From: Staphylococcus phage Twort
DNA: 64,000 nucleotides
Sequence record: NC_007021.1
Direction: 5' to 3' (one strand)
A program made the translations under genes and the position numbers. Every line of letters starts with the position of its first letter. Positions within the stretch are counted from its first letter, which is position 1. Of the stretch, positions 1 to 61,756 are shown one piece after another. The notes beneath the pieces were generated by a model. It had not been told where the DNA came from. It saw only the letters and a list, made by a program, of their open reading frames with translations, and did not search any database.

Positions 1-2456
1 CTGATTTTACATGGGAAAATGGACAACAAGATATTGATGAGATACTTGCTATGTTAAAAGAATGGGTAGCTAGTAAAGAAGATATTAAAGTAGCACACAA
101 TGGGCAGTATGATATTAACTTTTTAATGTCCTCACAAAATTTCACAGAGTTTAATGAACATCAAGATACTAAAGTAGGTTGGTATTTAGCTGTTACACAA
201 GAAGAGGCGGAATCTTTAAAACTATCTGATATTTCTTATGAAGTTACTGATATGGGTGGGTATGACAAGCCTTTAGAAAATTTTAAAAAATGGTTTATCC
301 AAGATTTACTTAAGTATTTATCCGATGCTTTAAATGAAAGAAAGAAAGAGAATAAGAAACCTGTTAAAAAAGAGTATGATATAAAGGCTCCTGATTATGA
401 CTCATGGATTAAGGGTAAATTACAAGAACCTGTAGACTTAGATAATCATGATATAAAGCTAAAGGTGTCTGAAGAAGAAAAAGTATATACTGAGTTAGGA
501 TTAGTACCAGAAATTCTTAATAAAAATATATTCTTTGAAGACACATTTAAAGAGTTAGTATCTAAATATGATGTTTATATGAATTTATCTTCAGCGTCAA
601 AAGAATACGTGTTAGATACTGCTATTAATCTTATTAATAAATACAAGAACGTAAAAGATGTAATTAATGATGTAGATGGTAATAGCTTTAACTATGATTG
701 GATTCCATTAGAACTTATGCATCCCTATGCTAGTGGAGATACTGATGCTTGTAGACGTATATATTGTGATGTTATTAATAAATTAAAAGAGCAGAATAGA
801 CCTAAGGCTTTAGAATTATTAACTAAGAGTTACCCAAGACTAACAAGAACTCTAGCTAGAATACAATCTAATGGTATGTATACTGATACTGAATATTTAT
901 ATATGATAGATGATAAATATAGTAATGAATTAGATAAAATAGAACAAAAATTAAGAAGTCATTGGGTTATTAAGGAATTTGAAGATACAAGATATGATTT
1001 ATATATGGCAGGTGTAGAAGAATTTGAAAGTAATCCACCTAAAGAACGTAATAAATCTATAACTCAATATAGAGATAAATTTAAGAATGGTGGTTGGAAA
1101 TTTAAACCAAGTTCAGGGGCACATAAAGGAGAAGTATTATTTTCTATCTTAGGAATATCATTACCTTATGAAAAAGAATTTGTTAAGGATAAACCTTTTA
1201 CCAAAGGAGTAAAAGAGGATAAATTAACTTGGGAAGATTATAAAACAAATAAAAGCACTATTGACTATATTATTGATAATATAGAACTTAAAAAAGATTG
1301 TATAGATGTGGTTGTTCTTATGAAGAAGTATGCTGAATTACAAACAAAAAGAAACTCCTTCACTAAGAAACTTCCTAACCTGGTTAATAAAGAGACTAGT
1401 ACTTTACATGGCAATTTTAATAGTACTGGTACAGCATCGGCTAGGCTAAGTAGTAGTGCTCCTAATTTACAACAATTACCTTCTCACACATCAGATGTTA
1501 ATAAATTTGACTACCATTATCCTGTTAAACGTGCTTTTAAATCTAGATATAAGAATGGTATTATGACAGAGTTAGACTTTAGTGCTATTGAGATGAAAAT
1601 AATAGGACTATATACTAAAGACCCTGAAATGTTAGAATCATTTTTAAAAGGAGAAGATATTCATAAATCAACAGCAAGTATTGTTTATAACAAACCTGTA
1701 GAAGATATAACTGCTGAAGAAAGACAGAACACTAAGAAAGTAAACTTCGGCATCGCATATGGGGAAAGTCCGTTCTCTTTTTCTGGCAAAAATAATATGA
1801 CTGTAGAAGAGGCAGAAGAGATATTTAATAAATATTTTAATACTAAACCTTCCGTAAAAAATTCAATTGATGCTACGCATGATTTTGTACAGAAACATGG
1901 TTATGTAGAGGCTATGCAAGGACACCAACGTTTTATTAGAGATGCTCAAAGCAGTGATAAGAAAAAACGTAATCAAGCCCTTAGACAGTCATTCAATACA
2001 ATAATACAAAGTACAGCTGGGTACCTTACTAATATGGCTTTAACATTTATAGATGATTTTATACAACAAAACAATATAAAATCAAAAATAGTAGCAACAG
2101 TACACGATAGTATTTTAATTGATACCCACCCTGATGATATTTTTATTATTGGTAAAGTATCTAAGCATATTATGGAAAACTTACCATATGATTTTCTATT
2201 CATGAATCATAATGGAAGTAGCATAAGATACCCTATAGAGGCTGACTTTGAAATAGGTCTTGCGTATAATGATATGGTAGAGTATGATGAGGAAGATATG
2301 AAGACATTTAATAAAGTAGAAAACTACATTAAATATAAAATGTCCCTAAAAACTATTAAGGAATATTTCGAGTCAGGTAAACTTACTGAAGAGCAATACA
2401 AACAAAAAGTAAGTATTGTAGAATCAGAGAAATATAAATACCAACAAATGTCTTGA
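1..2456 (+). CDS. DNA polymerase, family A (Pol I-like); 5' end cut by the window edge
   Basis: The reading frame is open from the window start and in phase with ORF 51..2456. The translation has KKVNFGIAYGES (motif B, KxxxNFGxxYG) and VATVHDSILID (motif C), and the N-part resembles a 3'-5' exonuclease. Confidence 0.85.
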   Translation, partial: DFTWENGQQDIDEILAMLKEWVASKEDIKVAHNGQYDINFLMSSQNFTEFNEHQDTKVGWYLAVTQEEAESLKLSDISYEVTDMGGYDKPLENFKKWFIQDLLKYLSDALNERKKENKKPVKKEYDIKAPDYDSWIKGKLQEPVDLDNHDIKLKVSEEEKVYTELGLVPEILNKNIFFEDTFKELVSKYDVYMNLSSASKEYVLDTAINLINKYKNVKDVINDVDGNSFNYDWIPLELMHPYASGDTDACRRIYCDVINKLKEQNRPKALELLTKSYPRLTRTLARIQSNGMYTDTEYLYMIDDKYSNELDKIEQKLRSHWVIKEFEDTRYDLYMAGVEEFESNPPKERNKSITQYRDKFKNGGWKFKPSSGAHKGEVLFSILGISLPYEKEFVKDKPFTKGVKEDKLTWEDYKTNKSTIDYIIDNIELKKDCIDVVVLMKKYAELQTKRNSFTKKLPNLVNKETSTLHGNFNSTGTASARLSSSAPNLQQLPSHTSDVNKFDYHYPVKRAFKSRYKNGIMTELDFSAIEMKIIGLYTKDPEMLESFLKGEDIHKSTASIVYNKPVEDITAEERQNTKKVNFGIAYGESPFSFSGKNNMTVEEAEEIFNKYFNTKPSVKNSIDATHDFVQKHGYVEAMQGHQRFIRDAQSSDKKKRNQALRQSFNTIIQSTAGYLTNMALTFIDDFIQQNNIKSKIVATVHDSILIDTHPDDIFIIGKVSKHIMENLPYDFLFMNHNGSSIRYPIEADFEIGLAYNDMVEYDEEDMKTFNKVENYIKYKMSLKTIKEYFESGKLTEEQYKQKVSIVESEKYKYQQMS

Positions 2457-2505
2457 CAATACAGATAATCTATGTTAGACTATATGAAGTAAAGGAGGTA
2501 TGTAT

Positions 2506-9491: not shown

Positions 9492-10719
9492 GTCAGTAGA
9501 AGAAGTTTATGCAATTGTCTTTGGTGTTTTAGCTAAAGACGAAGGTAAAATTGTAAGTAGCAAGTTTAATAAAATTTTAAATGAAATTGGTATTGATAGA
9601 GTTTCAGTTAATGACTTAAAAGATATTTCTGAAATGATTCATGAAGATGATTATTTAAATGGGTTGAAAAATGACGCTATTTTAGGTAAAGTATCCTTAA
9701 AAGACCTAGAAAGCGTAGAAGGTAAAAAAGTATTCAAAGATAATAACTATCTAGATACAGTTTCTACTTATGTAGTAGAGAACGAGAAAAGATTATCTAA
9801 CTTACGTGAATTACGTAAGCACCAAAAAAATGGTGCTTATATGGAAATGCTTATGGAAGGTCTTAAAAAAGATTTAGTTAAGGAACTTAAAAACCCTATT
9901 ATTGAAGACCGAGATATTTTACTAGGACATACTGATAAAGAGCTAGTCTTATTATTATCGGATTTTCATGTAGGATTTACTTCTAGGGATTTAGATAATA
10001 AGTATAACTTTGAGGTTTTAACTAACCGACTAACGAAGTATTTAGATGAAGTTCAGACTATGGTATTAGAGCATGATATTGATGATGTTAGTATTTTCTT
10101 TGTAGGGGACTTAGTAGAGCATATTAATATGCGTGATGTTAACCAAGCATTTGATACAGAATTTACTATGAGTGAACAGATTTCTAAAGGTACTAGATTA
10201 CTAATAGACATTATTAAAAACGTATCTGAAATGGTAGATGGTAAAGTTACTTTTGGTATTGTTGCAGGTAACCATGACAGATTACAAGGTAACAAGAATC
10301 ACAAAATTTATAATGATAGTGTAGCTTATATTGTTCTTGATACTCTTTTATGTATGCAAGAAAATGGTGTTATTAATGATATTGATATTATTGATAATAG
10401 AGAAGATATTTATAAATTCTATCATAAAGTTAATAATACTAATATCTGTGTGACACATGGAGATTCTTTAAAAGGTAAAGGCAAGAATATTAGTAAAGTA
10501 GAAGTTAAGGAAAATATAGATGTATTAGTTACAGGTCATGTACATCACTTTAGTGCAACCCAAGAAGATTTTCATAAAACACATGTAGTAGCTAGCAGTC
10601 CTATTGGATTTAATAATTATTCTAAAGAATTGAATTTATCTAGGACTTCACCTAGTCAGCAAATGCTTCTAGTAGATAGTAGTAAGAACTTAACAATCAA
10701 AACAGTATTCTTAGACTAG
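9484..10719 (+). CDS. calcineurin-like metallophosphoesterase with an extra N-terminal domain
   Basis: Motifs SDFHVG (DxH), FVGDLVEH (GD), AGNHDR (GNHD/E) and VTHGD. Confidence 0.75.
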   Translation: MYKSVEEVYAIVFGVLAKDEGKIVSSKFNKILNEIGIDRVSVNDLKDISEMIHEDDYLNGLKNDAILGKVSLKDLESVEGKKVFKDNNYLDTVSTYVVENEKRLSNLRELRKHQKNGAYMEMLMEGLKKDLVKELKNPIIEDRDILLGHTDKELVLLLSDFHVGFTSRDLDNKYNFEVLTNRLTKYLDEVQTMVLEHDIDDVSIFFVGDLVEHINMRDVNQAFDTEFTMSEQISKGTRLLIDIIKNVSEMVDGKVTFGIVAGNHDRLQGNKNHKIYNDSVAYIVLDTLLCMQENGVINDIDIIDNREDIYKFYHKVNNTNICVTHGDSLKGKGKNISKVEVKENIDVLVTGHVHHFSATQEDFHKTHVVASSPIGFNNYSKELNLSRTSPSQQMLLVDSSKNLTIKTVFLD

Positions 10720-17884: not shown

Positions 17885-18994
17885 ATGATAACGAAAAAAG
17901 TTAGACTTAAACCTACTAAACAACAGGAGTTAAAATTACGTAAATCAGCAGATATAGCACGATTTATATATAATTGGACTTTAGCAAAACAACAAGAAAA
18001 TTATAAACAAGGCAATAAATTTATACAAGATTCTGTGTTAAGAAAAGAAATAACACAATTAAAGAAAACTGAAGAGTTTAGATGGTTAAATGAAGTAAGT
18101 AATAATATTCCTAAGCAAGCAGTTAAAGATGCTTGTAATGCTTACAAAAGATTTTTTAAAAAACAATCTGGTTTTCCTAAATTTAAATCTAAAAAGAAAA
18201 CAAGACCTAGTTTCTATAATGATACACAAAAACTAAAAGTAAAAGAAAAATCAGTATTATTAGAAAAAGTGGGTTGGGTTAGAACATCTGAACAATTACC
18301 TGTAGGTACTAAGTACTACAATCCTAGAATCACTTTTGATGGTAAATATTGGTATATAAGTGTTTCTATTGAAGAAGAAAATAAATATGAAGAACTAACA
18401 AACGAATCTTTAGGTATTGATTTAGGAATAAAAGAATTAGCCGTATGCTCTGATGGAAGTATTTATGAAAATATTAACAAAACAATAAGAGTTAAAAAAC
18501 TAGAAAAACGATTACGTAGATTGCAACGTAAGGTATCTCGTAAATACCAAAATAATAAAGAAGGGAGTACCTTTGTCAAAACTTGCAATATTATAAAACT
18601 TGAAAAACAAATTAAACTCTTACAACGAAGATTGTCTAACATTCGTAAAAACTATTTACATCAAACAACAACTTCTATAGTGAAAACCAAACCTAGAAGA
18701 ATTGTTATAGAAGATTTGAATGTAAGTGGTATGATGAAGAATAGACACTTAGCTAAAGCAATACAAAAACAAGGATTCTATGAGTTCCGTAAACAACTAG
18801 AATATAAGTGTGGAAGAAAAGGTATAGAACTTGTTATTGCAGATAGATTCTTTCCTTCTAGTAAAACATGCTCTAATTGTGGTAACATCCACAAAAACTT
18901 AAAACTATCAGATAGAATATTTAAGTGTGACTGTGGTTTTAGTATTGATAGAGACCTTAATGCTAGTATTAATTTAGCTAATTATAATATTTAG
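17885..18994 (+). CDS. tnpB: TnpB (OrfB, IS605/IS607 family); RuvC-like RNA-guided nuclease, apparently intact
   Basis: N-terminal K.RL.PTK.QE...ARF.YN. RuvC-I GIDLGI, RuvC-II IEDLNV, zinc finger CSNCGN...CDCG, and RuvC-III DRDLNASINL. Confidence 0.85.
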   Translation: MITKKVRLKPTKQQELKLRKSADIARFIYNWTLAKQQENYKQGNKFIQDSVLRKEITQLKKTEEFRWLNEVSNNIPKQAVKDACNAYKRFFKKQSGFPKFKSKKKTRPSFYNDTQKLKVKEKSVLLEKVGWVRTSEQLPVGTKYYNPRITFDGKYWYISVSIEEENKYEELTNESLGIDLGIKELAVCSDGSIYENINKTIRVKKLEKRLRRLQRKVSRKYQNNKEGSTFVKTCNIIKLEKQIKLLQRRLSNIRKNYLHQTTTSIVKTKPRRIVIEDLNVSGMMKNRHLAKAIQKQGFYEFRKQLEYKCGRKGIELVIADRFFPSSKTCSNCGNIHKNLKLSDRIFKCDCGFSIDRDLNASINLANYNI

Positions 18995-19153
18995 ATTATC
19001 ACTAATAAGATACTAAATATATGTACCATTCGTTGTATGGGAATTTAAGCCTTTGGAGTATCATACAAACTTGAGTAGAGTAAATGAATATAGTAATTTA
19101 CTCAAAAGGGGATACGTTGAAAAAGGAATATAATTTATAAAGTTTTATAAATT
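18995..19153 (+). ncRNA. candidate omega RNA / right-end region of the TnpB element
   Basis: Called from position, on the 3' flank of tnpB. There is a hairpin GAGTAAAT...ATTTACTC and a terminal palindrome. No covariance evidence. Confidence 0.3.
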
Positions 19154-31377: not shown

Positions 31378-31794
31378 ATGAATGAAGAACAAGCAAAGGA
31401 TAAGATATATTATGAGTTACTTTACACAGTACGTGAGTATGGAGGTACAGAAGCGGATTTATTAAAGCTTATTGATAGTTTTAGTTATTTAGATGGTAAA
31501 GCTCCCATGTTTATGAATCCAGAAATGGAAAGCTACTCAATTGAACAATTTCTTAATGAACAAAAGAGTAACTTAGAAAAGTATTTAGAAGCTCTAGATA
31601 TAAAATATAATAAAGTAATTGATATTACAGGAGCAGAGTATAAAATATTCGGTGGTAAGTTAGTAATACAAGAAGGAGATAATTATTATACTTTGTCTAT
31701 CAATGTAGATAATAGTCATGATATTACCTTATATAAGTTACCTTTTTACTCTATGTTAAGTATTATCATTGACAATAAATACAAATTTCAGTAA
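31378..31794 (+). CDS. hypothetical protein
   Basis: RBS AAAGGAGA. Confidence 0.6.
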   Translation: MNEEQAKDKIYYELLYTVREYGGTEADLLKLIDSFSYLDGKAPMFMNPEMESYSIEQFLNEQKSNLEKYLEALDIKYNKVIDITGAEYKIFGGKLVIQEGDNYYTLSINVDNSHDITLYKLPFYSMLSIIIDNKYKFQ

Positions 31795-31805
31795 GTATAA
31801 ACTAA

Positions 31806-31842
31806 AGTCCTAGGGTGAAATAAGACACCTAGGACTATTTTC
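31806..31842 (+). terminator. rho-independent terminator
   Basis: AGTCCTAGGGTG...CACCTAGGACT followed by ATTTTCT. Confidence 0.7.
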
Positions 31843-31984
31843 TATAAGAATCGGTTTTGACTAAGTATAAATTATCTTTCAGAAGTGAATAAGTAGCAAA
31901 AATCACTAAGTAGCAAAAAACCTTTCTACCCGAAAAATATATAGGGTAGTAGATTTCTAAATATTCTGACAATTTAGACAAAAG

Positions 31985-35431: not shown

Positions 35432-37685
35432 ATAAAAATTCCTTTCTTAGCCCTACAATATTGTCCCTATTTTCTTTTAGATAATTTTTATCTTGCTTTT
35501 CTAGCCAATAGTAGAATTCTCTTAGGGTTTTATCTTTTTGTAGGATATATTGTTTAGGTCTATTTCCACTAGACTTAGCTACAGAAGAAATTAAACCTCT
35601 CATATACTTCCAGTTGTTATAATATTCTAATTTTTGTTTGACCATAAATTTATTGCTGTCCTCAAAGACATAACCTTCAATTTCTTCCTTGTTATCCTCT
35701 GTAACAAAGTTATAGAACTCTACCCATGTATTTAAAGTAGTAACTTGTTTTTTGTAAGGTAATCCTAAGTACTGTGCTGTAGATTTTACTTCTTTGTAAG
35801 GAAGTTTATTAAACTGTAATTCATTCTTAATAATGTCGAGTAAAACAATTTTGTTTTCGTTGTATTCTATGATATGGGGGTCGTTTTCAATATCAATAAC
35901 CTCAAATACAAATGTGGAGTTAGAATATTTTAATGTTTCTTTTAAAGTATTTAAGTCAATTTTTGAATTTTCTACAATGGTTTTAAACATTAGCGCATAT
36001 TCATTGTCTTTAGATAAATGAGTGCTAGATTTGCTTGCGTAGATAATCTCATCTCTCTTTTCGTCATAGAACATTAAGCCTAAGAAACCATTTTCTTTTT
36101 CATAAACATCTACTGGGAATGATAAAGTGTCAGGCAAGTTTTCTAACTTAGTTTCGTTCATTTCATTGATGTTGAAAAATTTAGGATACCCTCTTCCTAC
36201 AACTGTATGGTCATCTTCTCTAATAAACAGTCCTCTTGCGGTAACAGATAATTGGTTCCAGTTCTTTTTAGTAAAGGCATGTTTAGTAAAATTGACGGAT
36301 ACAATATCATCATGAGTAGGTTTTACTTTAATTGTTTTTCTATCCTCTTTTGCAATATTTAAATAGGTTTCTACAGTTAGCTCTGGGTCTATTTCTTTTA
36401 AATGGTCTCTAGTATCTAATAACAATTTTTCATTATATACTGGGTTTTTGATTTCGTGAGGCATGATAGAGTTATCTTCATCAATAGTAACAGCTCTTAA
36501 GTGTCCTCCTTTTTCTACACGTCCTTCTAGGTTAATAGAGTCTTTATACGTGTCTAAAGGTTGTCTGTATAAGTTTCTATGACCATGAATCTGTATAGTG
36601 TCAGAATTATCCCATTCAGAATCAATATCAAATTCATAACCGCCAACACCATTAATAATTTGGTGAGTTGATACCATATTTAAATTATCTAACATTTGAG
36701 GCATAATACCACCATGTGTTATTACATAATCCTGTCCTTTATATGTGAAATATGCAAGTTGTTGTAATTTTTCTACTACGGTCTTAATTCTTTTTTGTGT
36801 AATACCAAACTTAATAAAACTTCTAAGAGTTGAAATAAAACCCCTAGCTCGAAACACTTTCATTGCCTTATTGAAAAACTCATCTTTATCTTCATAAATA
36901 TCTGTTAATTCTTCGAGTTCCTGATTATCTAAGTAGATAAAGTTTCTTAGATGTCGTTCGTGATTGCCCTCTAATAAAATAACATTTGGCTGTTTACAAA
37001 TCAATTCTAGGTATTCAAAAACTTCTTTTGTTTCTATCCCTCTATCGAAATAATCTCCAACAAAAATAAATAATTCATTTGGATTATCTAAAATTTTATT
37101 TACGGAAGCAAAAGCAGATAAAACTGTAAAGCATGAATGAACGTCTCCAATTACATGAATCTTATTGTAGTGGTCGACCTTCATAAAATCTTTATCCCAT
37201 TTTAATGTATCTAATAAGTTATCTTTATCTACACTCTTAGCATAGCTTGGGATATTTTCATGTTGCAATCTATCATACATATTTTCAATAACTTCTTCTG
37301 GGACTTGCTTATGAGACTCTCTGTTTTTATTTCTTTCTAATAAAGTATCTAAGTCCTCTTCCAATGTTACAACATAAGTTCTATATCGGTATTTTCTTGC
37401 AAGTTTTTCATATTTTTTGATTAGTTTACTTGTTGAGTGAGTAGCATCAATAACAGTAAAATCTCCACGAATCATACGCTGTTCTAAAATTTCAAGTAAA
37501 AGTGTCCATATATAATTATCATTTTCTTGTGTAGTTACTTGTTGTCCTTTTGTGTTGTAAACTGGTGAGCCACATTGCGTTCTTAAAACATCTGGAGAAA
37601 GCGTGAATTGTTCTAGTCCATTTTCTTTGATGTAGGTGGATTTACCTACACCAGGAACTCCCCGTAAAAGTACTAATTGTCTCAT
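35421..37685 (-). CDS. fused polynucleotide kinase / metallophosphoesterase / RNA-ligase-like (adenylyltransferase) protein; Pnkp-like RNA repair enzyme
   Basis: P-loop GVPGVGKST plus SPDVLR (kinase). GDVHSCF, GDYFDRG and GNHERH (calcineurin-like phosphatase). KENGF (ligase motif I, KxNG), EGYVFED (motif IV) and MVKQK (motif V). The internal Met at 37685 probably starts the protein; the ORF track starts at 37724. Confidence 0.8.
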   Translation of the reverse strand: MRQLVLLRGVPGVGKSTYIKENGLEQFTLSPDVLRTQCGSPVYNTKGQQVTTQENDNYIWTLLLEILEQRMIRGDFTVIDATHSTSKLIKKYEKLARKYRYRTYVVTLEEDLDTLLERNKNRESHKQVPEEVIENMYDRLQHENIPSYAKSVDKDNLLDTLKWDKDFMKVDHYNKIHVIGDVHSCFTVLSAFASVNKILDNPNELFIFVGDYFDRGIETKEVFEYLELICKQPNVILLEGNHERHLRNFIYLDNQELEELTDIYEDKDEFFNKAMKVFRARGFISTLRSFIKFGITQKRIKTVVEKLQQLAYFTYKGQDYVITHGGIMPQMLDNLNMVSTHQIINGVGGYEFDIDSEWDNSDTIQIHGHRNLYRQPLDTYKDSINLEGRVEKGGHLRAVTIDEDNSIMPHEIKNPVYNEKLLLDTRDHLKEIDPELTVETYLNIAKEDRKTIKVKPTHDDIVSVNFTKHAFTKKNWNQLSVTARGLFIREDDHTVVGRGYPKFFNINEMNETKLENLPDTLSFPVDVYEKENGFLGLMFYDEKRDEIIYASKSSTHLSKDNEYALMFKTIVENSKIDLNTLKETLKYSNSTFVFEVIDIENDPHIIEYNENKIVLLDIIKNELQFNKLPYKEVKSTAQYLGLPYKKQVTTLNTWVEFYNFVTEDNKEEIEGYVFEDSNKFMVKQKLEYYNNWKYMRGLISSVAKSSGNRPKQYILQKDKTLREFYYWLEKQDKNYLKENRDNIVGLRKEFLYEV

Positions 37686-37686
37686 A

Positions 37687-37992
37687 TTAACAGTCCTCCC
37701 TACCTTCTTTGAGATAGTTCTCATATTTTTTCTTTAAAGCAGGATTTTTGCTAGATAATATAAATTCAAGTATCTCTTTATCCGTGAAAATTTTTGTATA
37801 TTCTTCTTCCCATTCTACATCTTTATAATTGTGTTCTCCTGTTTCTTCAAGATTGTTTAAAGCCATCTCAGCATATATCTTCGCATCAATTAACCATCTT
37901 GTATACATGCTTGAAGGGTCTAAAAACTTTATTTGATTTTCATAATTAATAATATCTGTTTTTAATTTAAGTTTTGCTTGTTCTTTATTCAT
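37687..37992 (-). CDS. hypothetical protein
   Basis: 101-aa ORF. Confidence 0.6.
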   Translation of the reverse strand: MNKEQAKLKLKTDIINYENQIKFLDPSSMYTRWLIDAKIYAEMALNNLEETGEHNYKDVEWEEEYTKIFTDKEILEFILSSKNPALKKKYENYLKEGREDC

Positions 37993-38249
37993 TATAGCAC
38001 CTCATACGTTTTATGGAATATTTCAGGTTTAACTGGATAGAATTCACCATGTACGCCTTGGACAATATAATCATTCAATCTAGCCTCTAAATTGCCTTCT
38101 AAAGTTTTTATAATTAAATACCCTTGATGCCTTGAAACGCAATACCTAACTTGACCATTAGACCAATTCTCTATTTCTTCTGCACTTTCCAAATCTGTAA
38201 ACTGAACAAATTCAATTTCTACTGGTTTCTTCCTAGCTTTCTGAATCAT
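37992..38249 (-). CDS. hypothetical protein
   Basis: 85-aa ORF; ATGA-type overlaps with its neighbours. Confidence 0.6.
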   Translation of the reverse strand: MIQKARKKPVEIEFVQFTDLESAEEIENWSNGQVRYCVSRHQGYLIIKTLEGNLEARLNDYIVQGVHGEFYPVKPEIFHKTYEVL

Positions 38250-38953
38250 TCTAACTCCTCCAATTTAATAAATGGTAATTCTATATCTCTAAAAACTGCT
38301 CCTACATCACACAACAACATATCATTATGTTTTTCTACCTGACCACTACTAGTAGGTGTATGCCCACATACGTGTATAAAACCATCTTTTCTAGGTTGAA
38401 AATCCCTAGACCACATTAACTGGTCTACTGTTTGTCCTTCTACAGGTTTCCAACTTACACCACCAGAATGAGTAAATATATATTTATCTTTCTTATAATA
38501 CCTCCTACAATTAGTCATAAACACTTTAAACTTCCTATAATCTTCAGATTCTTTAAGTTTATTTAGTTCATTTTTAATAAAATCATAATCGTTCCTTAAA
38601 ACATCTTCTACAATGTTACATGTTAAAGTTGCAATATCAACACCGTAAGAGTCAAGTGTTTCCATGCAATATCTTGATAGCCACTCAATATCATAAATAC
38701 CTAATCGGTCTATATTCTCTATAATCCTATATAACTCATCATCATGATTTCCTAGTAGGGCTACTACATTTTCATCATTTAATAATAAATCAAATAGATA
38801 GTTCACAACATCCTTAGACCTATCACCTCTGTCTATATAATCTCCTAAGAATACTATTGTATCTTCTGGTTTACGCTCTTCAATTATTTTATTCATTAGT
38901 CTCATAAGTTTATCATACTCTCCATGTATATCTGGGATTACAAATATGCTCAT
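38246..38953 (-). CDS. Ser/Thr-protein-phosphatase-family metallophosphoesterase
   Basis: PDIHGE, GDYIDRG, GNHD and a GH motif. Confidence 0.8.
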   Translation of the reverse strand: MSIFVIPDIHGEYDKLMRLMNKIIEERKPEDTIVFLGDYIDRGDRSKDVVNYLFDLLLNDENVVALLGNHDDELYRIIENIDRLGIYDIEWLSRYCMETLDSYGVDIATLTCNIVEDVLRNDYDFIKNELNKLKESEDYRKFKVFMTNCRRYYKKDKYIFTHSGGVSWKPVEGQTVDQLMWSRDFQPRKDGFIHVCGHTPTSSGQVEKHNDMLLCDVGAVFRDIELPFIKLEELE

Positions 38954-42320: not shown

Positions 42321-43070
42321 TCTACCATTCCTCCATTTTTCCAAATAAGTTCTTTTTGTCCTCTTAATGGTTGTGTTAAAGCTTTTTCTACACTCCATCC
42401 TTTTTTAATTCTTGACCACAAAGAACTATAAGGGATACCTGTTATATCAGACCATTCGGCTATGCTATGCTTTTCATTATTGTATTCTAAAATATGGTTA
42501 TTCCTTCTATTTCTCTCTTGTTGTGTATAATCAGCCCACCTGCAATTATTAGGTTTGTAATCATCATCATTATCAATTCTATCTAGTGTTAAAGTGTTAT
42601 CATATCCACTATTCATTGACCATTTATAAAAATTTTCAAAAGAATCAAACCATTCATCACAAACTTTTATACCTCTCTCACCATAGTTTTTATAGTTTAT
42701 ACTATTTATATTGGAACATCTCATTTTCATATTGTTCCAAATGTTATACAATCTACTATTTCTATTTCCATGTTTTTTCTGTCTCCAGCTAATTTTTTGT
42801 TTAAGCAACCACATGATTTAGTATTGCCTGTTCTTATATCTGTTCCTCTAACTACGAATTCATTTCCACATTTACAAACACACAACCAACAAACATGTTT
42901 CCCTTTGTTTTCAACTCTTTTTAAAACAGTACACCCATTAAATTTATAGTTTGTCATGTCTTTAAGTTTACCCATTACCTAACCCCCTGACTGTTTCTCT
43001 TGCCATTCTTCCAACCCCACTGAATCAGTTCGGGTAGCGTCATTTTCTTAATCGTTTTAATCTTTACCAT
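42317..43070 (-). pseudogene. endonuclease-like zinc-ribbon/HTH protein split across three overlapping ORFs (42975..43070, 42727..42975, 42317..42814); frameshift in an A6 tract
   Basis: The frame change lies between ...TKSCGCLNKK and KKHGNRNSRLYNIWNNMKMRC. One extra A in GACAGAAAAAAC would fuse the two pieces. Confidence 0.55.
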
Positions 43071-43101
43071 TTCTCATTTCCTCCTAATTGATTATATACT
43101 T

Positions 43102-43130
43102 AGTATAAAGGATAATAACTAGATTGTCAA
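43102..43130 (-). promoter_or_regulatory. sigma-70-type promoter on the minus strand (TTGACA-17-TATACT)
   Basis: Plus-strand TGTCAA at 43125-43130 and AGTATA at 43102-43107. AGGAGG follows, then a 31-codon ORF. Confidence 0.65.
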
Positions 43131-43491
43131 CTATAAAAATAAAAAAAGTACCTACAAATTAATGTAGATACTTATACTATAATTATAGAATTTTAGGTGT
43201 GTACATGAAGGATAACTCATGTAGGGTTTAGTAGTAAGATACAAAGCGTCTACCACGCAACATACAACACCTCTTGTATGTTATTATATACGTACTGGAA
43301 GAAGTTACCAGTAGGAACCTACAGTCATATACAAAGCCTATGCCAGGCAATATATGGTATATCTCATATATCAGGTATAATACCTTATAATGATTATCTT
43401 GTAACCTATAACTTCTGATAATTAGGGTTTTATAATAATTACTGTATAAGTAACTATAACCTATAAGTTTTTTGCATGCTAGGGGCTATAA

Positions 43492-43563
43492 TGGACTCTG
43501 TAGGGATTGAACCTACACTCCAACGCTTATGAGGCGTTTGCTTTACCATTAAGCTAAGAGTCC
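43492..43563 (-). tRNA. tRNA-Met (anticodon CAT)
   Basis: A full cloverleaf folds by hand: acceptor GGACTCT/AGAGTCC, D arm GCTT-AATGGTA-AAGC, anticodon arm AACGC-CTCATAA-GCGTT, T arm GTAGG-TTCAATC-CCTAC. CCA is not encoded. Confidence 0.85.
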
Positions 43564-43571
43564 ACAACAGT

Positions 43572-43637: not shown

Positions 43638-43764
43638 TAATTAATGTTAGGTATGTTTCTAATAATTAGAAATAAGAAGTATTTTTATAATGATTTCAAA
43701 GTACCCATATAGTTAGGCTCTTACTTTCATTATATTATTAACTATATCTAATGTAACATACTTT

Positions 43765-60336: not shown

Positions 60337-60458
60337 ATAATCATTTCCTTTTTATTAAAATATAGTCATTGCGTACTATCATAAAATCAGGAGGGTTTTA
60401 ATGAAAGAAAGGAGAAATATATGAAAAAATTCTTCCGCAATGACTATAATATTGTAAG

Positions 60459-60994
60459 TTAATACAATTAAATATCATAACATAGCCGTTCTCACACGGA
60501 ACTATGTATAAAGAAATATTGTTAGGTTACCTAGTTCTAGTAAGTTCTATACGGGAGCGACCTCGTAGTCCACTTACAGAAGCATAAGCAATATAGGGGT
60601 AGGGTCTATTACCTACCAACGTTCACACGGTACGAAGAATTAGCCTAACCAAATGTATATATAATATTGATTGTTTATCTTTATTGTAGATTTGTGCTAC
60701 TTGTACTGGTATCATTCATTATCAAACATGTTTCCATGCTCCAACTACAAAAGTGCTTTAGTAGTGTACTTATATAGGAAACCACTAAATTCCCATATAA
60801 GGATTACACCTGACGGATACCATACCTTATATCCCTTTATACATAGAGCTGAACAATCCACCTCGTATTCAATAATACTCAAAGGGTATTTCCTAAGTTC
60901 TCACGTAGGTTTAATACCCTGTGACATTTTCACACTTTACAGCCACCACACTGTTAAACTTCAGTCACTATGTTATGATATTTAATTGTATTAA
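60459..60994. mobile_element. 536-bp non-coding element with perfect 27-bp terminal inverted repeats and 8-bp flanking direct repeats (MITE-like)
   Basis: TIR TTAATACAATTAAATATCATAACATAG at 60459-60485, and its reverse complement at 60968-60994. Flanks ATTGTAAG (60451-60458) and GTTGTAAG (60995-61002). Confidence 0.6.
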
Positions 60995-61118
60995 GTTGTA
61001 AGTATAATATAACACACTTCTAAAACTCAGTCAAGAAAAATCAAAAACTTTTTATAATTTTTTTATACTAGGGTAAAAAAGTAGTAAAAAGACCTAGTTG
61101 TGTAAGGGGTCATTTATT

Positions 61119-61136
61119 TATATATATATATATATA
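61119..61136. repeat. (TA)9 microsatellite
   Basis: tatatatatatatatata. Confidence 0.9.
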
Positions 61137-61283
61137 AAGTATAACATAAATAAAATCCTGTGTCAAGTTAATTTAATAATTTTTTTGAATTTATTAAATT
61201 TTGTTTTTCTAGTTTGTAAGGGTAACCACATTTGTGATGTCCTTATTTCTTATTTTAACTTAAATAGGTAAAGTCAGAACTTT

Positions 61284-61633: not shown

Positions 61634-61756
61634 AACATGTTTGGAAAATAAGAACCTCTCTTAATATATATATATAACTAATACTAATACTAATAATAAT
61701 AATACTAATACTAATACTAATATATATAAGGGGAACCTTAATTTTCCAAACATGTT
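61634..61756. repeat. 16-bp inverted repeat AACATGTTTGGAAAAT / ATTTTCCAAACATGTT enclosing a (TA)n / (TAATAC)n microsatellite
   Basis: Arms at 61634-61649 and 61741-61756. The loop holds (TA)6 and roughly eight TAATAC/TAATAA units (61661-61728). Confidence 0.8.

Follow-up and report, generated by a model that had tools for sequence, protein, structure and literature searches.

A probable divergent ROOL-type RNA gene on the minus strand of Staphylococcus phage Twort

ROOL RNAs, collected in Rfam as family RF03087, were described by Weinberg et al. 2017 (PMC5737381), and their structures were analyzed by cryo-EM (cryo-electron microscopy) by Kretsch et al. 2025 (PMC12286853) and Ling et al. 2025 (summarised in PMC12515178). 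ROOL molecules self-assemble into octameric (D4) cages, which consist of RNA only and are larger than the ribosome. In phage K, the interval 37679-38832 is reported to produce the long non-coding RNA (lncRNA) with the most reads of the phage, from an early promoter of its own (Finstrlova et al. 2022, PMC9241854); its authors likened it to ROOL and GOLLD because of its proximity to tRNA genes and its abundance, not by sequence or structure, and a later review speaks loosely of sequence similarity (PMC10383478). In this study a 64,000-nucleotide stretch of Staphylococcus phage Twort (sequence record NC_007021.1), here called the window, was analyzed around a non-coding element delimited by inverted repeats at 60459-60994, which is very probably the gene for a large structured non-coding RNA, transcribed from the minus strand and belonging to a divergent ROOL type.

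Both the ROOL family and the phage K transcript were already known; in the literature searched, no paper assigns these phage RNAs to ROOL by sequence or structure. What is new is a ROOL clade below the Rfam threshold, with the ROOL pseudoknot and kissing contact kept by covariation; it was found in every Twortvirinae genus examined and in Listeria phage P100. A first-pass annotation of the locus, made from the letters of the window, had read the element as a miniature non-autonomous transposable element (MITE), and had named, as a second possibility, a structured RNA enclosed by a long-range stem. This second possibility is the one borne out, by covariation, by strand bias and by the match to ROOL.

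A conserved fold on the minus strand

A first alignment of 13 homologues, sharing 67-93% identity, was folded by RNAalifold, which gave 127 pairs, 78 of them with compensatory changes. The curated structure, established on 17 homologues, comprises 148 pairs in 20 helices, including two non-nested ones; alignment columns are numbered as in A2. Pairing is found in 96.6% of the cells, whereas shuffles reach 79.0% and a slide of the partners by 1-3 columns leaves 35-40%. Double changes, affecting both sides, occur at 94 of the 148 pairs. The covariation score is 0.531 versus 0.198 for the control, and was reached by none of 500 shuffles. In the closing stem P1, 15 of the 27 pairs co-vary. Two parts of A2, the hairpin in columns 418-438 and columns 440-500, are misaligned between clades by MAFFT and were excluded from the counts.

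The strand could be established from the wobble pairs. G·U pairs make up 10.5% of the paired cells and A·C pairs 1.0%, and at several positions the G·U pair is kept in every one of the 17 sequences. Since G·U is far above A·C, the structure is formed only by the minus-strand transcript. The features of the locus are listed below, with the evidence on which each is assigned.

60459-60994, minus strand: ROOL-type structured RNA gene, 536 nt between the outer ends of P1 (Rfam match, covariation, G·U far above A·C)
60968-60994, minus strand: closing stem P1, 5' strand, the right terminal inverted repeat of the first-pass annotation (A2 columns 6-32 with 590-616, double changes at 15 of 27 pairs)
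60459-60485, minus strand: closing stem P1, 3' strand, the left terminal inverted repeat (covariation)
60850-60965, minus strand: 5' domain with P2- and P3-like helices and a hairpin with a GUGAGA loop (helices 2-7, aligned to ROOL P2/P3)
60824-60847, minus strand: long helix P4, 5' strand, pairing with 60501-60527 (helices 8-9, double changes at 15 of 23 pairs)
60501-60527, minus strand: long helix P4, 3' strand, pairing with 60824-60847
60811-60822, minus strand: P5, 5' strand, pairing with 60707-60718 (helix 10, 100% paired, double changes at 8 of 10 pairs)
60707-60718, minus strand: P5, 3' strand, pairing with 60811-60822
60769-60801, minus strand: P8-like hairpin, with loop AGUG at 60783-60786 (helix 11, 10 of 12 pairs co-vary)
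60763-60766, minus strand: CACU, partner of the L8 loop, equivalent to the ROOL L8-J6/8 contact, bridge B4 (helix 12)
60745-60749, minus strand: pseudoknot, 5' strand UGUAG, pairing with 60685-60689 (helix 13, 100% paired, 3 of 5 pairs co-vary)
60685-60689, minus strand: pseudoknot, 3' strand CUACA, pairing with 60745-60749
60722-60743, minus strand: hairpin with a GAAA loop, equivalent to ROOL GccgaGAAAucggC (helix 14, Rfam alignment)
60637-60684, minus strand: variable A-rich linker, A2 columns 326-398, conserved in neither sequence nor length and not alignable
60693-60703, minus strand: invariant segment CAAGUAGCACA, pairing with UGUGAACGUUG at 60617-60627 (helices 15-16)
60598-60617, minus strand: hairpin GGUAGG-UAAUAGAC-CCUACC, equivalent to ROOL ggagGUAAuCAAUCCc (Rfam alignment)
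60543-60574, minus strand: P18-like hairpin with loop GGUCGCUCC, core 60555-60561 (helices 18-19)
60486-60499, minus strand: 3'-terminal hairpin CCG-UGUGAGAA-CGG, just before the P1 3' strand, equivalent to ROOL GGGcGAAGgCCC (helix 20, 3 of 3 pairs co-vary)
61006-61034, minus strand: predicted promoter TTGACT-17-TATATT with extended -10 (same layout in four lineages)
61138-61166, minus strand: second, upstream promoter-like site TTGACA-17-TATACT with TG (sequence motif)
60995-61002, no strand: right flank word GTTGTAAG, read as CUUACAAC on the RNA strand, between -10 box and P1, with the predicted transcription start inside it
60451-60458, no strand: left flank word ATTGTAAG, the first 8 nt past P1 on the RNA strand (sequence)

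The pseudoknot joins A2 columns 261-265 with 321-325. Its two strands read UGUAG/CUACA in Twort, UuGcc/Ggcaa in the aligned ROOL consensus and UGCAC/GUGCA in the canonical ROOL locus L173, each being complementary within its own clade; the label P10 was assigned to it from the text of PMC12286853. The kissing interaction L8-J joins columns 223-226 with 243-246. It is 100% paired, with two co-varying pairs, and the pair types counted over the 17 homologues are AU13/GC3/GU1 and CG12/UA5. Most lineages carry AGCG/CGCU, Twort AGUG/CACU and Silviavirus GGUG/CACC; the equivalents are GUAAGUA/UACUUAC in P100 and UAGCA/UGCUA in canonical ROOLs (L173). The loop of the P18-like hairpin in Twort, GGUCGCUCC, is identical to the ROOL consensus. 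The hairpin at 60598-60617 has a different stem in Kayvirus-type phages, which still pairs, as judged by eye, MAFFT shifting columns here.

Some candidate helices were discarded. The RNAalifold hairpins GUAG/CUAC (310-313/321-324) and 241-244/261-264 were dropped for the pseudoknot and the kissing loop, the first being broken in SscM-2 and PG23 and the second in Remus; the pseudoknot was preferred over local hairpins because the ROOL consensus also supports it. Weak diagonals at 61-66/218-223, 154-157/216-219 and 282-285/425-428 overlap better-supported helices and were treated as chance.

Relationship to the ROOL family

The Rfam ROOL model spans positions 1-574 and has a curated gathering score of 99.1 bits, which is an operational cut-off and not a biological feature. 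A scan of 41 kb of related loci in one batch returned no ROOL match; as the speed filters tighten with length, short stretches were scanned. In these, ROOL was the sole Rfam family matching the element, always on the RNA strand, and the matches extended over the full model, except for Remus, where the match is local (185-523). Twort scored 60.4 bits (E = 2e-11), SEP1 88.2 bits (E = 1e-17), SscM-2 62.1, EW6 52.3 and Remus, locally, 51.3 bits, and Kayvirus 812 36.5 bits (E = 9e-6). GOLLD gave no match at E up to 10 in any Rfam scan of these RNAs.

The relationship was also found in the opposite direction, by using a covariance model, R1, built from Twortvirinae sequences only and covering 140 positions and 30 pairs from P5 to the pseudoknot. 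Over a search space of 0.92 Mb, which included about 80 decoy loci, R1 recovered ten canonical ROOL loci at homologous coordinates, eight of them with E between 1e-4 and 2e-2; in L173, for example, the R1 match at 10021-10165 falls inside the Rfam match at 9799-10367. The only clear decoy match had an E of 0.54. Canonical ROOLs from IMG/VR, all located inside tRNA islands, scored 255-359 bits with Rfam and 17-32 bits with R1, and Twort, itself a training sequence of R1, scored 146.5 bits. Some of the decoys were loci found by a loose motif, AGTAGC...TTC...GTGAANGTT, in IMG/VR, where the matches listed were mostly due to chance. A weak R1 match at 31784-31909 on the plus strand (18.9 bits, E = 0.02), within a 225-nt gap between convergent open reading frames (ORFs), is probably a chance match as well.

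Two loci lie between the canonical and the staphylococcal RNAs. One unexpected R1 match (L066, IMGVR_UViG_3300033463_000466, 1906-2504, plus strand) turned out to be a ROOL that exceeds the gathering score, with 166 Rfam bits, 31 R1 bits and an nhmmer E of 1e-11 against the Twortvirinae profile; it is intermediate between the canonical ROOLs and the clade of staphylococcal phages. The other is found in Listeria phage P100 (L190, NC_007610.1, 1566-2117, plus strand), with 86 Rfam bits, below the gathering score, and 79.9 R1 bits. Since P100 is matched by both models, a graded series leads from the Twort RNA to canonical ROOL, and the divergent clade reaches the Jasinkavirinae. The P100 RNA lies between tRNA-Pro and tRNA-Met, has a TTGACA-17-TATAGT promoter of its own and is unannotated in the record.

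The tRNA islands of canonical ROOLs contain other RNA matches. In three of them (L171 10084-10167, L176 507-590, L168 187-276) the 3' part of OLE RNA was recognized at about 53 bits, just above the gathering score and at model positions 436-595; L177 also contains a type II hammerhead at 63-131.

Promoter, genomic site and rival readings

The predicted promoter of the Twort RNA (61034-61006, minus strand) consists of TTGACT, a 17-nt spacer and TATATT, the -10 box being preceded at a distance of one base by a TG, and ends 11 nt before P1. The layout TTGACA-17-TGnTATAxT recurs at the same distance from the stem in L162, an IMG/VR relative of Twort, in Sciuriunavirus, in Kayvirus-type phages and in Silviavirus, within surrounding sequence that differs; in Sepunavirus and in the L165 lineage the sequence upstream is a different one. 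Judged by its motifs, this would be a strong sigma-70-type promoter with an extended -10, conserved in four lineages.

In phage K (NC_005880.2) the orthologue occupies 38007-38594 of the minus strand, and its alignment with the Twort RNA extends from one end to the other. An annotated terminator and a promoter of the shared type come before the orthologue, which falls within the published lncRNA interval. This interval corresponds to the whole 1154-bp intergenic stretch that separates gp191 from gt004, for which no structure was given (PMC9241854); it contains the Twort orthologue at the same synteny. In phage K the RNA is followed by three tRNA genes, in Twort by none. In Kayvirus, tRNA genes stand directly after the RNA, and the distance from P1 to the tRNA-Ser gene of Remus is 1-2 nt.

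A second non-coding stretch of the window adjoins a tRNA gene. About 340 nt within 42976-43491 (minus strand) are non-coding, directly downstream of tRNA-Met (43491-43564), and end in a hairpin and a T-run near 43140-43170; the stretch matched no Rfam family, and may correspond to the second lncRNA of phage K (13595-14229, beside gt001). A sub-threshold TEG147-like match lies upstream, at 43685-43739.

The distribution of the element was analyzed by blastn against 50,697 phage records. It was found in 305 of them, at one place each, and all are Herelleviridae of Staphylococcus or Mammaliicoccus. The syntenic site, between the holin and small-ORF block on the lysis cassette side and a zinc-finger gene, is the same in Twortvirus, Sciuriunavirus, Sepunavirus, Kayvirus, Silviavirus and unclassified Twortvirinae. 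No match was found among 72,556 plasmids. A scan with the conserved core motif over one genome per species, for 185,579 bacterial species, gave 18 matches, none of them staphylococcal and none homologous by profile search. No empty site was seen among the Twortvirinae genera examined; phage Alsa_4 (L189) has no ROOL-like RNA within the 5-kb locus, and was not counted as an empty site because its gene order is different.

These data bear directly on the MITE interpretation, in which a DDE transposase recognized 27-bp terminal inverted repeats, inserted the element and duplicated an 8-bp target. The repeats on which it was founded are real: the 27-mer TTAATACAATTAAATATCATAACATAG has two exact places in the window, at 60459-60485 (plus strand) and, as reverse complement, at 60968-60994, with no further match at up to 3 mismatches and none in 100 shuffles, and in a repeat search the arms grow to 30 nt at 97% (60456-60485/60968-60997). 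The adjoining 8-mers, ATTGTAAG and GTTGTAAG, agree at 7 of 8 positions, as had been described, and the chance of such a match at a fixed position was estimated by us, not computed, at about 1e-3; the word RTTGTAAG is nevertheless no commoner than chance predicts, with 7 matches in the window versus 8.45 expected. The flank match falls to 6 of 8 in L162, which is 93% identical to Twort, and is absent in other genera. As the -10 box ends 11 nt before P1, the right "target duplication" is the stretch between -10 box and stem. The arms co-vary, and in the lineage of L165, L068 and L062 (IMG/VR) both have been replaced by unrelated sequence which still forms a helix of about 22 bp; the interior is kept with compensatory changes, which is unexpected for a MITE carrying no passenger. 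Copies with different flanks were found neither in the window nor in the plasmids or, by core motif, in the species genomes, and none of the relatives examined has an empty site with a single RTTGTAAG. The presence of the element in all relatives examined, with neither empty site nor host copy found, is an outcome that the first-pass annotation had itself named as refuting the MITE, and we regard a mobile origin as highly improbable. Twort does contain a real transposable unit of IS200/IS605 type elsewhere, at 17885-19128 (plus strand), consisting of a TnpB gene (369 aa, with HTH_OrfB_IS605, OrfB_IS605 and Cas12f1-like TNB domains) and a RAGATH-18 RNA (67.6 bits) 55 nt after it. A similar transposase and RAGATH-18 pair adjoins the ROOL-like RNA of Silviavirus Remus (L003 1384-2638); LSA2308 and RP15 lack it. 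The long, perfect inverted repeat, lying between genes, would also suit an element acting as DNA, such as a cruciform or a protein-bound palindrome involved in replication, packaging or recombination, with the interior as a spacer, and in silico both strands fold well (z-scores -6.8 and -7.8). However, the interior helices co-vary throughout, the tenfold excess of G·U over A·C has relevance only to an RNA made from one strand, the promoter is conserved at a fixed distance and the orthologue is abundantly transcribed; this reading is very unlikely. That the locus codes for protein is almost certainly wrong. The ORF at 60671-60985 (plus strand, 104 aa), which the first-pass annotation had found unlike a protein, is present, but no Pfam family matches it. 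In some GenBank records the homologous region carries short annotated hypothetical proteins, for instance RP15_gp178 (L009 1007-1198) and five short coding sequences in vB_ScaM-V1SC04 (L012 800-1561), but the annotated frames shift in position and strand between records, the homologues differ in a hypervariable linker and by indels whose lengths are not multiples of three, and substitutions follow base-pairing, not codon structure; such coding sequences are probably mis-annotations.

The favoured reading, a divergent ROOL RNA, has to be set against a number of observations that weigh on the other side. All staphylococcal RNAs score below the 99.1-bit gathering score, a composition bias term of 13.8-29.4 bits enters their ROOL matches, and Kayvirus reaches only 36.5 bits. 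The ROOL helices P3b and P7 are absent from Twort-type RNAs, and no P6 equivalent holding across lineages was recognized by eye. The 17 sequences correspond to about 8 lineages, so that cell counts overstate the independent events, although the distinct pair types and the slid-partner controls are independent of this overcounting. No intrinsic terminator was found downstream of the Twort RNA, whose 3' end is inferred, and folding of the 134 nt that follow P1 does not exceed that of shuffles (z = -1.4). The Twort RNA has no adjoining tRNA gene, the sole tRNA of the window being at 43491-43564. The evidence for expression comes from the published interval of phage K. In the Twort L18 loop (UCGCU) the self-complementary core is only GC, and the case for multimerisation is drawn from homology and from the geometry of a 4-bp co-varying interaction. 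The scores and the missing helices would suit a large structured phage RNA not homologous to ROOL, with matches produced by AU-rich composition and a few convergent motifs. This is unlikely, since six independent lineages have ROOL as their sole match, on the correct strand and, in five of the six, over the full model length; R1 finds canonical ROOLs at homologous coordinates with essentially no decoy matches; L066, above the gathering score and matched by the Twortvirinae profile, and P100, matched by both models, are intermediates; and the pseudoknot and kissing partners occupy equivalent positions in the covariance model alignment, complementary within each clade and different in sequence between clades.

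The surroundings of the RNA gene agree with the earlier description. The interior of about 480 bp has a GC content of 0.33-0.355 versus 0.19-0.28 in the flanks and is thus less AT-rich, as had been noticed, and the near-repeats reported within it correspond, on the RNA strand, to recurring GUGAGA/GUGAA motifs located in the 5'-domain hairpin loop, in the 3'-terminal hairpin loop and in the conserved CCGUGUGAA segment. The position beside the lysis cassette is also confirmed: leftward lie a 59-aa ORF, the holin holTW (Phage_holin_1) and the endolysin plyTW (CHAP + Amidase_2 + SH3_5), all on the minus strand, and the window agrees at 99.6% with the holTW/plyTW record Y07739.1 of GenBank. The rightward neighbour is a 74-aa zinc-ribbon ORF on the minus strand, flanked by AT-rich spacers with an (AT)n run and TAATAC-type tandem repeats of periods 9-12 (61114-61139, 61660-61728). 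Just downstream of the zinc-finger gene, P100 (L190 3099-4619) and Alsa_4 (L189 2806-4359) encode an "RNA-binding protein" of about 510 aa (DUF2828 + DUF7788); the surroundings of the zinc-finger homologue in Bacillus phage B4 are densely filled with coding sequence.

The segment just past the RNA, at 60385-60462, contains on the RNA strand CU-rich motifs resembling the 3' end of 16S rRNA (UUUCUCCUUUCUUUC, CCCUCCUG), and several such motifs, CACCUCCUUUCAC among them, are found at the same place in phage K. Read on the plus strand, they are strong Shine-Dalgarno sites with two overlapping mini-ORFs, the first starting at ATG 60402 (7 aa), its TGA overlapping the ATG at 60421 of the second (13 aa), which enters the P1 stem. 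A 22-nt inverted repeat, 82% complementary (60352-60373/60436-60457), brackets the 62 nt that lead from the RNA end to the 59-aa ORF's ribosome-binding site, with a fold no better than in shuffles (z = -1.4).

Possible assembly and comparison with described systems

In the favoured reading, transcription would begin a few nucleotides downstream of the extended -10 promoter at 61034-61006, and the body of the RNA would run from 60994 to 60459. Its 5' and 3' ends pair as the 27-bp P1, which gives the appearance of terminal inverted repeats. The fold comprises 5' domain, P4, P5, P8-like hairpin, GAAA hairpin, pseudoknot, unstructured A-rich linker, P18-like hairpin and terminal hairpin. The homology with ROOL makes it most likely that the RNA self-assembles into a closed multimeric cage, inside which the A-rich linker would be placed. 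Expression would be early and very abundant, as for the phage K orthologue. In relatives, the 3' end could be made by processing of the adjoining tRNAs, such as the closely following tRNA-Ser of Remus, in line with the reported finding that a pre-tRNA joined to the 3' end of ROOL leaves the cage undisturbed (PMC12515178).

Two contacts could hold such a cage together. In the one, the L8 loop would pair with the strand just 3' of the P8 hairpin in a neighbouring molecule. The corresponding L8-J6/8 contact of ROOL (bridge B4) connects different molecules and forms the "second circle" of the cage, an octamer (PMC12286853). Because the partner of L8 starts 3 nt after its own 12-bp stem, pairing within one molecule appears sterically unlikely, and we infer, by analogy with ROOL, that the contact is intermolecular in the Twort RNA too. 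In the other contact, self-complementary L18 loops would meet. The L18 loops of relatives are self-complementary (AGCU, UAGCUA and, in SscM-2, UUGCAA), with a palindrome-keeping switch in one lineage only; on this thin evidence they may fit the symmetric loop-loop bridge B6 of ROOL.

A tentative and rather doubtful extension is that large lytic Herelleviridae of Staphylococcus and Listeria carry a deep ROOL branch of their own, with a strong early promoter, a 3' end fused to phage tRNAs in several lineages and a changed set of helices (P3b and P7 lacking, P1 long, insertions in particular lineages), which could build a cage of different geometry or stoichiometry, and could display or protect phage tRNA precursors or, early in infection, sequester a host factor.

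A ROOL relative in strictly lytic, well-studied and tractable phages (Twort, K, SEP1, Remus and Listeria P100), among which K is a therapy phage and P100 a biocontrol phage, offers a test system. Because the curated Rfam threshold misses the whole clade, the ROOL family is wider than catalogued, and two tertiary or quaternary contacts gain independent covariation from the new clade. Annotation of the locus should show an RNA gene rather than hypothetical ORFs or a mobile element.

Compared with described systems, the Twort element resembles MITEs and the insertion sequence families IS256, ISL3 and IS4 in its terminal inverted repeats and similar outer 8-mers, but differs in being single-copy, fixed and orthologous across genera, with co-varying arms; no transposase partner was found for it. 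GOLLD is alike as a large, ornate, phage-associated, tRNA-near and cage-forming RNA, but differs in size and architecture.

The comparison with ROOL is the closest. Twort-type RNAs measure 536-590 nt, against a ROOL average of 581 nt, and share with ROOL a closing stem P1 joining both ends and the order of the helices. Covariance model alignments identified equivalents of P1, P2, P3a/c, P4, P5, P8, P9, P11/12, P14, P18 and P19; P2 corresponds to GUGACUGAA and its hairpin, and P4, P5 and P8 to 60824-60847/60501-60527, 60811-60822/60707-60718 and 60769-60801, respectively. The ROOL helix GUAcaAGUAGC ... GUGAAAgUU, which encloses the linker, appears in Twort as GUACAAGUAGCAC ... GUGUGAACGUU; the GAAA-capped hairpin, the GGUcGCUCC loop and the last hairpin before the P1 3' strand are common to both, and the variable, disordered internal linker of ROOL has its counterpart in the A-rich stretch at 60637-60684. 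P1 has about 27 bp in Twort, compared with 16-17 bp in ROOL, and some Twortvirinae lineages, unlike ROOL, carry an extra hairpin (A2 columns 446-481). Both are phage-encoded, and tRNA genes adjoin the RNA in relatives of Twort (Kayvirus, Remus, P100), though not in Twort. Very high abundance, a ROOL trait, has its parallel in the highly abundant transcript within which the phage K orthologue falls. Whereas ROOL is known from prophages and tRNA islands of rumen bacteria, Lactobacillales and Clostridia, the RNAs described here are carried by lytic Herelleviridae of Staphylococcus and Listeria.

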